IMG/VR virus record: IMGVR_UViG_2740892274_000005
DNA: 44,169 nucleotides
DNA from: a virus
Lineage: Duplodnaviria; Heunggongvirae; Uroviricota; Caudoviricetes
Reading direction: 5' to 3' (one strand)
Shown: one piece after another, positions 35,287 to 40,181 of the stretch
How the letters are laid out: each line of letters starts with the position of its first letter
Position numbering within the stretch: the stretch's first letter is position 1
Position numbers and translations under genes: made by a program
The notes under the pieces: model-generated
The model's database searches: none
What the model was told of the DNA's origin: nothing
The model's input: only the letters and a program-made list of their open reading frames with translations

Positions 35287-35611
35287 TATGTATCCCCTGT
35301 AATTCCGGCAAGGCCGAAAGATGGCACCAGTGCGTCACCTGTCCGTCCTCATCTTCAAGGCAGGCTCCGGTTTCTTCATCAATAAAAAAGCCTTCATACC
35401 CCATATGGCCGATGCGCAGTTCCTGTTGGTCACCATACTGAACAATCAGCACGACAGCCTCCATATCAGGCGGAAATGCGTCATCCAGTGAATGCCAGGG
35501 ATAACCGCGCAAATCCCCGAAATAAACGCCGGTCAGCGTTCCGCCACAGAGCGGCATTCCGGCGGCACACACAAGAGGTTCATCTGATTCAACAAATAAG
35601 GTCGTTATCAT
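35279..35611 (-). CDS. Hypothetical 110-aa acidic protein
   Basis: Coupled to both neighbours by 4-nt and 8-nt overlaps. No family recognised. Confidence 0.55.
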   Translation of the reverse strand: MITTLFVESDEPLVCAAGMPLCGGTLTGVYFGDLRGYPWHSLDDAFPPDMEAVVLIVQYGDQQELRIGHMGYEGFFIDEETGACLEDEDGQVTHWCHLSALPELQGIHNG

Positions 35612-36159
35612 GGCGTTAACTCCCGTAATACAGCGTCCTCGGCAGTCCGGCGACGGTAATAAACTGCGTGAGCAGAATGTTCAGATATTCCAAACTTTTC
35701 GCCAATTTCCCGGAATGACAGACGGCGTGGGTAATCGGAATCACGCAGCTCACGTATAAGACGTACATCATCATCAGATATGCGCGTGCCGGGGCGTAAC
35801 TCTCCGCACTTTGTTAATCCAGCACCAATCATTCCTGCCCGACATCTGACAGAATCTTTATTACGTCCGAGATATTCTCCCATTTGCTGGCAGGTCATTG
35901 TTCTGGCATTTTTTCGAATAAACTTATCTTCATCAGGTGTAAATCTTGGGTGTTTATATTTCAGTAACTCCGGGTATGAACTGCGCAATACACCAGTCCG
36001 GTTATATACAGCCCAGACAGTTCTTTTTATTCTGGCAGCAATATCCTTAACCGGGGTGGATGAATAAAGCGCAATCAGCAGCGCATCTTCTTCAGGTGTC
36101 CACGGACGGACATGAGCGGGGGCGCGACCTTTTAGTCCCATGGGTTGTAATTTCATCAT
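35608..36159 (-). CDS. Protein with three tandem Myb/SANT-like HTH repeats
   Basis: Repeat 1 RPWTPEEDALLIALYSSTPVKDIAARIKRTVWAVYNR; repeat 2 PRFTPDEDKFIRKNARTMTCQQMGEYLGRNKDSVRCR; repeat 3 ISDDDVRLIRELRDSDYPRRLSFREIGEKFGISEHSAHAVYYRR. Confidence 0.6.
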   Translation of the reverse strand: MMKLQPMGLKGRAPAHVRPWTPEEDALLIALYSSTPVKDIAARIKRTVWAVYNRTGVLRSSYPELLKYKHPRFTPDEDKFIRKNARTMTCQQMGEYLGRNKDSVRCRAGMIGAGLTKCGELRPGTRISDDDVRLIRELRDSDYPRRLSFREIGEKFGISEHSAHAVYYRRRTAEDAVLRELTP

Positions 36160-37356: not shown

Positions 37357-37887
37357 TTATTTATTCAGTCCGGCGTCCTGTTCAAAAGGCTCGACATAAA
37401 AACTTTCAGCGCCTTTATTCACCTTGATACCGGCAATGCCTTTCACAGCATCCGGCTCCGCCAGGACGGCTTCCTTGTTCACTTCCTCTTTCGTGCGGAT
37501 GAAACGCTCAAGCCCCATACGGCGCAGCATTTCAATCACACCTTCCACATCACGGCTGACGCTGCATGATGGCGTTCCCAGCCGCCATGACACCGTTCCG
37601 GTGGTCAGATTGGCTGTTTTGGTTTTGCCGCCGTTCGTCAGCTCATCACGGTTGGTTTTGCACCAGTCCTGAATCCCTTTAAAAAGCACTTTGATTTGCT
37701 TTTTAAGATTTTCAATCTGCGGCGTATAACGGGCGGTGATTTCTGCCACTTCGTCATTCATCGCCGTTTCCAGGCGCAGCGCCTCTCGCTGAATATCTCC
37801 CAGGGTGCGGATATCACGGCTGACTTCTTCCCGGGTCTGCGGTGCCGCCTCGGCTGCGGCCTTTAATTTTGTAACGCGTTTAGCCAT
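37357..37887 (-). CDS. gam: Host-nuclease inhibitor Gam (Mu Gam, Ku-like)
   Basis: MAKRVTKLKAAAEAAPQTREEVSRDIRTLGDIQREALRLETAMNDEVAEITARY...NRDELTNGGKTKTANLTTGTVSWR... is near-collinear with Mu Gam as I recall it. Confidence 0.85.
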   Translation of the reverse strand: MAKRVTKLKAAAEAAPQTREEVSRDIRTLGDIQREALRLETAMNDEVAEITARYTPQIENLKKQIKVLFKGIQDWCKTNRDELTNGGKTKTANLTTGTVSWRLGTPSCSVSRDVEGVIEMLRRMGLERFIRTKEEVNKEAVLAEPDAVKGIAGIKVNKGAESFYVEPFEQDAGLNK

Positions 37888-37898
37888 TTTGTTTTTCC

Positions 37899-38192
37899 TT
37901 ATTGCAGTGTGCCTGATGCTTTATGCACGCGGTGGCGTTTAATGATGGCATCCGCTCCAAAAGACTGTGCAGATGCCTGAAATTCCGCTGAGAGAAACTG
38001 AATAATTGCAGGACTGTGATACTGGAGAATACTTGCATAAACGTCACAGAGTGACGTCGGCCTGTTATCCGTATCACGTTCTGTTTTCACATCCACTCCA
38101 ATCTTTTCATGCACTTCAACACAGTCATTGCCTGCCAACTTTTCGTCATGCGAAACATGATTAAATTCAAAAATAACGCGTACTTTGCTCAT
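37899..38192 (-). CDS. Small early protein, paralogue of 38197..38469
   Basis: Start taken at the internal ATG 38192 (MSKVRVIFEFNHV...). Shares the N-terminal pattern MSKV-R-IFE-F/Y with the adjacent gene. Confidence 0.5.
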   Translation of the reverse strand: MSKVRVIFEFNHVSHDEKLAGNDCVEVHEKIGVDVKTERDTDNRPTSLCDVYASILQYHSPAIIQFLSAEFQASAQSFGADAIIKRHRVHKASGTLQ

Positions 38193-38196
38193 GGAA

Positions 38197-38469
38197 TTAC
38201 CCCTGTTGATTAAATTCATTACCGTTAATAACCCCGGAAGCCATGCCTCTGTCTTTCATGAATGCACTGGCTTTCATTGCCACAAACTCTGCGAAGTTTC
38301 TGCTTTCTGCCAGCATAACCACCCCAAAAATCATGGCGGGTCCATTATCTTTCTTCTTTATTCCGGTTGAACGTATATCCAGACTTACCCCTCTGTGCGT
38401 GCTGCCATCAGAGTTTTTGCAGATAACATCTTCCTTGTATTCGAAAATAATGCGTACGACTTTACTCAT
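38197..38469 (-). CDS. Small early protein, paralogue of 37899..38192
   Basis: 90 aa, MSKVVRIIFEYKEDVICKNSDGSTHRGVSLDIRSTG.... Tandem with its paralogue. Confidence 0.5.
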   Translation of the reverse strand: MSKVVRIIFEYKEDVICKNSDGSTHRGVSLDIRSTGIKKKDNGPAMIFGVVMLAESRNFAEFVAMKASAFMKDRGMASGVINGNEFNQQG

Positions 38470-38747
38470 CCTCTGGTCCTCGTTCTGTTTGGATAACTGA
38501 CCCGGCGTCTAACCTCACGGCAGAACCGAATCATGGCATTAAAGGCTTCTTCCTCCGTCACCGCTTCCGGTATCCCCGGAACCAGTAACTGCTCCTGTTC
38601 ATCACGTCCATGACGCGCCATAACCTCAATCACATGCCGTACCGTGGCAGGCTTTCCGGCAACTATCGGCAATGCACCTTCCGGCAGGACGTAACCAAAC
38701 TCAATAAGACCACTCGACCACGCCCATGCAATGAGATTTTTTTTCAC
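38466..38747 (-). CDS. Hypothetical early protein (93 aa)
   Basis: Coupled by a 4-nt overlap to the downstream gene. No family recognised. Confidence 0.5.
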   Translation of the reverse strand: MKKNLIAWAWSSGLIEFGYVLPEGALPIVAGKPATVRHVIEVMARHGRDEQEQLLVPGIPEAVTEEEAFNAMIRFCREVRRRVSYPNRTRTRG

Positions 38748-38748
38748 C

Positions 38749-39015
38749 TCACACCTCCCAGTAAACCGTGCAGCCGCTGATGCGGGTGGCCTTCACACGG
38801 CGGCGCAGGCCGTTGGTCTGTATGGTGATTTCAATTTCACCGGTTCCCTGCACGTTGCCTACCGGCGGCGTGGTTTTCAGTGCAAAACGTTGCGGATAGC
38901 GCTTACTGCGTTCCAGTACCGCACCGGCAAGTTCGGTCAGACGGCGCGCGCTGTTCAGGGAGTCGAATAAATTCATTTTGTTACCGCAGGATTGCATATT
39001 CATATAACACCTCAT
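38749..39015 (-). CDS. Hypothetical early protein, start uncertain
   Basis: 88-aa tracked ORF with several candidate Met starts (MNMQ.., MNLFDS..). No family recognised. Confidence 0.4.
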   Translation of the reverse strand: MRCYMNMQSCGNKMNLFDSLNSARRLTELAGAVLERSKRYPQRFALKTTPPVGNVQGTGEIEITIQTNGLRRRVKATRISGCTVYWEV

Positions 39016-39243
39016 TTAGCTGACTTGTTTCGCACCAACAGAACGGCATATTCCGCTGTAAACTTCTGTCGCACCTTCGCGATCAAGTCCGGCAGATATC
39101 ACCATTCGTGTGCGGTCATTAAATTCAAAAAGTAAATCGCCACATTCTTTATTTTCGGCCAGTGAAATCACCTTCACGTTATCGAAATTAACCAGGTAAA
39201 AGCGTCCGTAAATATCAGGAATATTAAATACCGCCATAATCAC
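39016..39243 (-). CDS. Small early protein immediately after B (position of kil in Mu)
   Basis: 75 aa, overlaps the B stop by 4 nt. Assignment to kil is positional only. Confidence 0.4.
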   Translation of the reverse strand: MIMAVFNIPDIYGRFYLVNFDNVKVISLAENKECGDLLFEFNDRTRMVISAGLDREGATEVYSGICRSVGAKQVS

Positions 39244-40181
39244 ACCTGTGAGAGTAATTCAGGGTTGGTATAAACCTCTTTAAAGGCCGCATTAATATGT
39301 TTTTCTGTCAGCGCCGCGCCTTCACCGCTGGCGGTGAGCCACGCCTGGTTAAGCGTATGTGTCAGAACGCGTAACGCTCCCGGCTTTTCAGCGATAGCCT
39401 GCATGACGGCCAGCTCGGCCTCACCACTGATCCCCCACGCCATGGCAATGGCCAGCACATCCGCCTTTTTGGCCTTGCGAAGTTGTTTTGTACGGGCAAG
39501 ACGGCTGAACAGGCGCGATAAATCATCAAAGGCGCGGCGTCCACCTTTAAACAATCCGCGCGGGTTACCAATAAGCACCATCCCGATCCCCGTGGCGTCC
39601 TGAATTGCCCGGAGTTGCTCCAGACCGTCAATACCAAGATGATCCGCCTCATCCACAATCACCAGTCCACGCGTTCCCATCAGGCGACGGCGGATGGCGC
39701 GGGATAATGCCCCTTTGTTCGCGCGGGTGTAATCAATCCCCAGCGCATCGGCCAGCTCCAGCAGACACTCCGTGACGCTGGAGTGCGCGGGTGACAGGGT
39801 GATCATCCAGGTGTTTGGTTGCTCCTGGCAGTAATTACGGGCAGTGGCCGTTTTACCCACACCCGGTACGCCCACAATAACGTTAATACAGCCCATCAGG
39901 CGAACCGCCTGAAACAGTGCGCGCAGCTCCTGGACTGTCTGAGTTTCCACAAACTGCGGCGGTTCCGGCAGTGCGCTTTGTTTATTCCAGTTCTCATACC
40001 AGGAGCGCAGGGAAGCAGCCACAGCAGCGTTATCGCCTTTATATTTTCCCTTACGGAAAGCCGATAATGTGCCGTCGGAAATTCCCGCCTCTCTGGCGAT
40101 GGCATACTGCGTCAGTACGCCGCCATCAATAAGTTCATCAATGGTCTTGATTACATCGTTAATATCGGTCATATTATTCAC
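39240..40181 (-). CDS. B: DNA transposition ATPase MuB-like
   Basis: 313 aa; ...LPEPPQFVETQTVQELRALFQAVRLMGCINVIVGVPGVGKTATARNYCQ...WMITLSP...LVIVDEADHLG... is collinear with Mu B as I recall it (Walker A GVPGVGKT). Confidence 0.88.
   Translation of the reverse strand: MNNMTDINDVIKTIDELIDGGVLTQYAIAREAGISDGTLSAFRKGKYKGDNAAVAASLRSWYENWNKQSALPEPPQFVETQTVQELRALFQAVRLMGCINVIVGVPGVGKTATARNYCQEQPNTWMITLSPAHSSVTECLLELADALGIDYTRANKGALSRAIRRRLMGTRGLVIVDEADHLGIDGLEQLRAIQDATGIGMVLIGNPRGLFKGGRRAFDDLSRLFSRLARTKQLRKAKKADVLAIAMAWGISGEAELAVMQAIAEKPGALRVLTHTLNQAWLTASGEGAALTEKHINAAFKEVYTNPELLSQV

Follow-up and report, generated by a model that had tools for sequence, protein, structure and literature searches.

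Tandem genes of the Mu gp7/Gnarl2 type, very probably ancient paralogues, between kil and gam in a Mu-like prophage lineage of Escherichia coli

The semi-essential (SE) early region of Mu is described in reviews as a series of small genes of unknown function (PMC3325207, PMC8705779), among which unassigned ORFs affect host viability (PMC3325207). One small protein of the Mu early operon, gp7 (also E6 or Mup07), has been tested in a functional screen of phage accessory genes (Silas et al., Nat Commun 2025, PMC12373910); in the supplement of that screen, orf63 is NP_050611.1 (NC_000929, 4784-5047), the exact gp7 sequence, and carries the name gnarl2. Expression of Gnarl2 in the wild E. coli strains ECOR1 and ECOR22 produced a downshift of the O-antigen ladder, T5 infection rose 1e5- to 1e6-fold upon Gnarl2 expression, and AP-MS on Gnarl2 gave no clear target pattern (PMC12373910). 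The effect on O-antigen could be indirect. Gnarl2 is also listed among the genes that are lethal in some hosts only (preprint, bioRxiv 10.1101/2023.04.06.535777), and it belongs to a very short list of small phage proteins with a demonstrated, enzyme-free effect on the O-antigen.

Two further small, non-enzymatic accessory proteins, Gnarl1 of Klebsiella phage KpV79 (40 aa) and Gnarl3 of phage Mangalitsa (78 aa, which binds GalU), have likewise been reported to shift the O-antigen ladder downwards, and are possible functional analogues of the two genes described here, g1 and g2. Unlike g1 and g2, they come from lytic phages, and when they were searched with the profile of the gp7 superfamily (hmmsearch), both scored below zero bits (E=0.15 and 0.21), which shows no relationship in sequence. 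In Pseudomonas Mu-like phages, small hypervariable early effectors encoded after the transposition genes (such as Aqs1 and Tip) manipulate the host. Their targets are quorum sensing and pili, so that the likeness to g1 and g2 is one of concept, and homology is not expected.

The window, by which is meant the whole stretch of 44,169 nucleotides analysed here (IMG/VR record IMGVR_UViG_2740892274_000005), carries a Mu-like E. coli prophage of a lineage whose representative in strain Sakai bears the annotation Mu-like prophage Sp18. Its early operon lies on the minus strand, in the order A, B, a 75-aa gene, a Kil-like gene, a 93-aa gene, g1, g2 and gam, followed by gp11- and gp12-like genes. The features that matter here are as follows.

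42342-40255, minus strand: transposase A
39240..40181, minus strand: ORF of the MuB-like transposition ATPase (B), which marks the early operon carrying g1 and g2
39016-39243, minus strand: 75-aa gene, the first after B (PHROG 3375, function unknown)
38749..39015, minus strand: Kil-like gene, 88 aa (phrog_2679, E=7.8e-46), the upstream boundary of the slot
38466..38747, minus strand: 93-aa gene, the upstream neighbour of g1 (PHROG 1518, labelled "host nuclease inhibitor")
38466..38469, minus strand: ATGA, in which the stop of the 93-aa gene overlaps the start of g1 (from ORF coordinates and sequence)
38197..38469, minus strand: g1, 90 aa, pI 9.25 (PHROG 4107; phrog_4107, E=1.7e-54), which starts MSKVVRIIFEYKED
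38200..38204, minus strand: AGGGG, a Shine-Dalgarno-like site for g2 in the last codons of g1, read in the sequence as ...CAACAGGGGTAATTCCATG
37899..38192, minus strand: g2, 97 aa, pI 6.27 (PHROG 2230; phrog_2230, E=1.8e-38), which starts MSKVRVIFEFNH
37357..37887, minus strand: gam, 176 aa (PF07352, E=5.5e-42), the downstream boundary of the slot

The genes that frame the pair have recognisable counterparts in Mu. The Gam of the window is 57% identical to Mu Gam, the Kil-like protein shares 33% identity with the C-terminal half of Mu Kil, and the position of B is annotated in related loci as AAA ATPase or Phage-MuB_C. The Kil homologue is the second gene after B here and the first after B in Mu. 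The intervening 75-aa gene is itself hypervariable, with amino acid identity down to 75% among prophages in which B is about 98% identical, and a dN/dS of 0.21. The 93-aa gene has no match in Pfam or NCBIfam and is variable in its presence: of the 42 tabulated loci (41 IMG/VR contigs and strain CI5), 26 had it at scorable coverage, 12 in which the Kil-like gene and g2 were both scored had it below the cut-off of 80% coverage, and 4 were truncated so that it could not be scored. In other loci it often stands beside members of the gp7 family, its homologues adjoining the gp7-family gene in locus L081 (after it) and in L104 (before it).

The first-pass annotation of the locus had pointed to two adjacent small genes, 4 nt apart, with near-identical N-termini, and this description holds. 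The N-termini, MSKVVRIIFEY in g1 and MSKVRVIFEF in g2, match at 8 of 10 aligned residues. The TAA stop of g1 (38199-38197) is followed by the 4-nt spacer and by the ATG of g2 at 38192, and the AGGGG that had been picked out as resembling a ribosome-binding site is indeed there (38204-38200), 7 nt upstream of that ATG. Its location within the end of g1 suggests translational coupling from g1 to g2. The mechanical ORF of g2 reaches back to an ATG at 38219, but all database homologues begin at MSKV. No promoter or terminator consensus was found on the minus strand within the g1-g2 pair, the counts being no higher than shuffled expectation, and the two genes are therefore taken to be part of the early transcript. 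Plus-strand ORFs antisense to the pair (38243-38500, 38185-38370 and 38006-38164) were considered and set aside, as both purifying selection and homologues back the minus-strand frames. A structured RNA at g1 or g2 was also rejected; the only Rfam match in the window is a tmRNA that lies elsewhere.

Pairwise BLASTP comparison with every Mu early protein gave no match for g1 or g2, nor did Pfam or NCBIfam, and the family has no match in a PDB sequence-profile search or a fold search. Of 50,697 phage records searched at the nucleotide and translated levels (megablast, blastn and tblastn), only two matched, both from Stx phages with an inserted Mu-like element. Among curated families and solved structures, no match was obtained to the known anti-restriction, anti-CRISPR and nuclease-inhibitor families (Ocr, ArdA, Ral, Gam, Acr), and no nucleic-acid-binding family or fold matches g1 or g2.

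A relationship to Mu gp7 emerges from the genomic neighbourhood of gam. When other genomes were inspected with Gam as the anchor, a Kluyvera prophage and an enterobacterial prophage proved to have small genes beginning MAKVIIE... immediately ahead of gam, and Mu gp7 itself (MAKVIIEIKN..., 87 aa) has a weak full-length match to phrog_2230, the family of g2 (E=0.009). The family was widened by a word-indexed search with a mixed alignment and then by a HMMER scan of 1.84 billion representatives, which yielded 30 matches only, consistent with a small family residing in Mu-like prophages; where the source is named, the hosts are mostly Escherichia, Salmonella, Kluyvera and Citrobacter. One of the 30, P0098, a protein of 710 aa with 13 tandem repeats (GPASMFAVILLSGSRAD...; E=1e-16 against the family profile), was judged a spurious low-complexity match that repeats a motif of the g1 helix. 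Profile-profile comparisons (hhalign) link the subgroups stepwise: the group formed by g2 and MSN proteins matches the D108-gp7-like group (99.1%, E=9e-19, 75 columns), the latter matches the Mu gp7 group (97.6%, E=4e-12, 78 columns), and g1 matches the g2 and MSN group (94.9%, E=4.5e-8, 74 columns). When g1 or g2 is compared directly with the profile of the Mu gp7 group, the match is weak (E=0.01-0.1), and the link to Gnarl2 is therefore a transitive one. On these profiles, g1 and g2 are very probably paralogues within the gp7/Gnarl2 family, in which g2 is the more canonical copy and g1 a divergent member.

Comparisons made within this family are also what joins g1 to g2. Taken directly, the two proteins are 22% identical over 76 aa (BLASTP, E=6e-4) and 14% identical in the family alignment, PHROGs assigns them to separate families (4107 versus 2230), and the two family profiles, both shallow, align over the first 33-45 columns only (E=2e-5 to 3e-6). 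On such pairwise or two-family comparisons alone, paralogy would be doubtful, and the simple picture of a duplication followed by divergence, which the first-pass annotation had drawn from the pair itself, is not supported by pairwise alignment, as identity beyond the first 11 or so residues is only 14-22%. Against the rest of the family, however, the g1 family aligns over 77 columns (hhalign, 96.4%, score 50.4, E=1.1e-9), and still over 71 columns when g1 and g2 are both excluded from the opposing profile (95.4%, E=1.7e-8); for the g2 family, the corresponding match covers 78 columns (99.0%, E=7e-18). Sixty column-shuffled g1 alignments scored 11.0 on average (sd 2.1, maximum 17.2), compared with the observed 50.4. 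The full-length alignment of g1, g2 and the family is collinear with few gaps. Thus, g1 and g2 appear to be true, very old paralogues whose homology past the N-terminus becomes visible only through profiles of the wider family, and the earlier reading of the pair as paralogues within the early (semi-essential) operon, with B on one side and gam on the other, is supported.

Similar comparisons can be drawn with the individual members. Mu gp7 (PHROG 10252) shares with g1 and g2 its size class (87 aa versus 90 and 97 aa), an N-terminal strand of the form M-[AS]-K-V-x-I-x-E, a collinear alignment, the slot between kil and gam, and membership of one superfamily through the transitive profiles; like them, it is a fast-varying accessory gene, and was flagged as such independently. 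It differs in being 14-20% identical to them, in occurring as a single copy rather than as two in tandem, and in belonging to the "MAK" rather than the "MSK/MSN" branch, and the O-antigen and T5-sensitisation phenotype has been reported for Mu gp7 only. The closest well-supported relatives of g2 are D108 gp7 (ACV50266.1) and its Kluyvera and Citrobacter relatives (P0066, P0096, P0099 and P0102), which occupy the same slot; unlike g1 and g2, these are single-copy genes, are uncharacterised, and are 20-30% identical to g2 and 10-14% identical to g1. The 41 homologues of g1 are all from E. coli, and the scan of 1.84 billion representatives contained no relative of it outside that species. In a neighbour-joining tree, the sole split with 100% support separates the MSK/MSN branch (g1 and g2) from the MAK branch (Mu gp7 and D108 gp7), and a sister clade of g1 and g2 has no bootstrap support of at least 50%.

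The family consists of small early proteins encoded at one fixed place in Enterobacterales Mu-like phages, a hypervariable slot with kil on one side and gam on the other. A gp7-family gene is found there in Mu, D108, L081, L083 and L106, and in L104 one precedes a DUF3164 gene that replaces gam. In L104 (5303-5941) and, at the same coordinates, in L105, the DUF3164 gene sits at the gam position directly after the gp7-family gene and is followed by a DUF5420 gene. Run over the fetched loci, the superfamily HMM detected one member each in Mu, D108, the Kluyvera prophage, the enterobacterial prophage, L106 and L104, and none in Gam-bearing Mu-like prophages of Gilliamella, Pseudomonas, Rodentibacter and others. 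A survey of copy number in related prophages, which had been proposed along with the first description of the pair, accordingly finds a slot that varies in both copy number and allele. Both g1 and g2 are present in 38 of the 42 tabulated loci (the 41 IMG/VR contigs and the CI5 chromosome), and 226 of 232 complete E. coli genomes having the region cover the two genes. In strain CI5 and in IMG/VR contig L040, g2 stands alone, and the 93-aa gene is missing as well; g1 without g2 was never seen in the loci examined. Two copies are therefore the rule in the Sp18-like E. coli lineage, and a single copy is found in the other Mu-like loci that have the family.

The two genes also stand apart from their neighbours in rate of change. 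Mean amino acid identity to the window among related loci is 98% for B (dN/dS 0.06-0.10), 97% for the Kil-like protein (0.11), 99% for the 93-aa protein where present, and 98% for Gam (0.09-0.10), with dN/dS for B, kil and gam together spanning 0.06-0.12. For g1 the mean is 86.6% and the minimum 79% (dN/dS 0.30), and for g2 the mean is 86.5% and the minimum 57% (dN/dS 0.37). Thus, g1 and g2 are under purifying selection and evolve about three times faster than B, kil and gam, and gene-wide ratios below 1 do not demonstrate an arms race or positive selection. The alleles fall into discrete classes that reassort independently, so that a g1 of 96% identity occurs with a g2 of 58%, and a g1 of 81% with a g2 of 94%. 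Because each copy has deep allelic lineages of its own, the duplication is taken to be ancient. Variability of the slot extends to Mu and its nearest relatives: ORF7 of SfMu is identical to Mu gp7 and less than 50% identical to the D108 equivalent, and it is against a background of similarity in the rest of the two phages that Mu and D108 gp7 fall below 50% identity (PMC4406740). As D108 gp7 clearly belongs to the family, within its MAKVIFEF branch, Mu and D108 appear to hold very divergent alleles of one slot. In the annotation of D108 (L107, 1733-2002), gene 7 lacks the "similar to Mu" note that all of its neighbours carry.

In both genes, residues 1-10 and the N-terminal half of a predicted helix are near-invariant, and the variable sites lie in the distal hairpin and the linker and, in g2, also in the C-terminal tail. 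The AlphaFold2 (AF2) model of g2 has a beta-hairpin (residues 4-18 and 25-39) followed by a helix (48-77; pLDDT 75.4), and that of g1, built on its own family alignment only, has a hairpin (6-17 and 24-35) and a helix (42-73) at low confidence (pLDDT 55.7). The same beta-beta-alpha order is hence predicted from independent alignments, at low confidence in the case of g1. The family, whose early proteins have about 85-100 aa, would on these models fold as a long beta-hairpin and one long helix.

On balance, and with moderate confidence, we favour the reading that g1 and g2 are ancient tandem gp7/Gnarl2 paralogues, co-transcribed and translationally coupled, that act as host-protein binders with an outcome like that of Gnarl2. 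The proteins are too small for enzymes and bear no DNA-binding or enzymatic signature, and so they are probably non-enzymatic. They would be made in lytic development and would bind host proteins, like Gnarl2; the scaffold would be made up of the invariant strand at the N-terminus and the adjoining half of the helix, and specificity, different in each copy, would lie in the variable parts, namely the hairpin tip, the linker and the C-terminal tail. If Gnarl2 is a guide, interference with O-antigen or LPS biogenesis might be the likeliest outcome. A function resembling that of Gnarl2, in the sense of modulating the host envelope or barrier, is proposed only tentatively, since the link to Mu gp7 is transitive, the identity is 14-20%, and Gnarl2 has no clear target; at such identity the function of g1 and g2 may differ from that of Gnarl2. 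That early-operon genes are repressed in Mu lysogens also counts against it, as this makes a benefit of O-antigen alteration to the phage less evident.

The case for ancient paralogues has to be set beside two other accounts of the shared N-terminus. It could be a 5′ box, such as a translation-initiation or recombination joint, placed on otherwise unrelated genes, or a chance resemblance, as would fit a direct similarity between g1 and g2 that is confined to the first 33 or so columns, an E value of 0.31 (no signal) for the two compared without their N-termini, and a first 33 nt that are 82% identical (27 of 33) ahead of a remainder at background. This is extremely unlikely, and is largely refuted by a truncation control: even after the N-terminal 11-12 residues are cut from g1 and from the family, a match between the two remains, in register and 58 columns long (score 30.2, E=8e-6; highest shuffle score 18.0), and both the full-length collinear alignment and the shared order of predicted secondary structure tell against it too. 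The chance match over a few residues that the first-pass annotation had allowed for is thus contradicted by the profile match at about 1e-9 and by the shuffle and truncation controls. A tandem duplication that is recent, specific to this lineage and subject to strong positive selection would explain why two copies occur in this E. coli prophage lineage only, why g1 is without relatives outside E. coli, and why both genes fall on the same side of the one fully supported split. Such a history is nevertheless very improbable and is rejected on the depth of the divergence, given copies that are 14-22% identical, a deep allele series in each, a gene-wide dN/dS of 0.30-0.37, and no support of at least 50% for g1 and g2 as sisters.

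As regards function, the two proteins might instead be halves of one factor, an obligate heterodimer. Adjacent, translationally coupled genes with products of opposite charge (pI 9.25 and 6.27) would suit such a partnership, as would a small hairpin-plus-helix fold that likely needs oligomerisation, for which the invariant N-terminal strand could be an interface, and the constant company of g2 wherever g1 occurs in the loci examined. That notion is improbable, however, in view of the solitary g2 of strain CI5 and L040, the single-copy state of the family in Mu, D108, Kluyvera, L104 and L106, and the free reassortment of g1 and g2 alleles, which argues against a co-evolving interface. Conceivably, the family could also serve the phage itself, in its transposition, replication or DNA metabolism, for instance as a small auxiliary to B, Gam or the transpososome, so that the effect of Gnarl2 on O-antigen would be an indirect artefact of overexpression. 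Its fixed place inside the replication and early operon, between B/kil and gam, accords with this, as do the AP-MS result and the SE-region ORFs that affect host viability (PMC3325207). This too is unlikely, for an internal partner should impose constraint, yet the family is the most variable gene of a region in which B and Gam are 98% conserved; many Mu-like phages that have a Gam, such as those of Gilliamella, Pseudomonas and Rodentibacter, lack it, and it matches no nucleic-acid-binding family or fold.

The reading of g1 and g2 as Gnarl2-type host-protein binders bears on the suggestion, made when the pair was first described, that they are anti-defence genes in an arms race. The barrier-compromising phenotype of Mu gp7 (PMC12373910) speaks for the first part and makes "anti-defence-like accessory gene" a reasonable guess, so that an anti-barrier or anti-defence role is plausible by homology; the second part is not borne out, as dN/dS of 0.30-0.37 does not amount to positive selection. 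It had likewise been considered that both might be conserved single-copy Mu early proteins of known function, and this applies by half: they would be relatives of the conserved Mu gp7, for which a phenotype, as distinct from a mechanism, has been reported. A bolder and rather doubtful extension is that the kil-gam slot houses radiating Gnarl2-type binders with specificities that follow the diversity of the host envelope or O-antigen, or escape from abortive-infection sensors, and that the Sp18-like prophages of STEC have fixed two of them with distinct specificities, a basic g1 and an acidic g2, as a two-effector counter-barrier module. Were that so, the alleles would be markers of the host pathway variants that the phage can disarm; should g1 and g2 prove to lack a phenotype like that of Gnarl2, they would be an ordinary pair of hypothetical early genes.

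What is new is, first, that gp7 can be placed in a delimited family that is hypervariable, in which the scaffold would be conserved and the surface would vary, and, second, that two copies differing greatly from each other are carried by a prophage lineage that is widespread in pathogenic E. coli (O157, O111, O121 and others). The natural allele series of g1 and g2 could provide a ready panel of specificity variants for finding host targets, and would permit asking whether O-antigen diversity and this phage locus co-diversify. There may also be a practical side in the phage susceptibility of STEC, given the 1e5- to 1e6-fold rise in T5 infection with Gnarl2.

Two minor observations concern the surroundings of the locus. 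Downstream of the gp12-like gene, a 183-aa ORF (35608-36159, minus strand) includes a region that is 27% identical to Mu gp9 (E=4e-6); as gp9 lies immediately upstream of gam in Mu, a gp9-like domain appears to have been relocated or fused in this ORF. At 1722-2084 on the plus strand is a complete tmRNA gene (ssrA; Rfam RF00023, 295.8 bits), which indicates that the window takes in chromosomal flank beside the Mu-like prophage.
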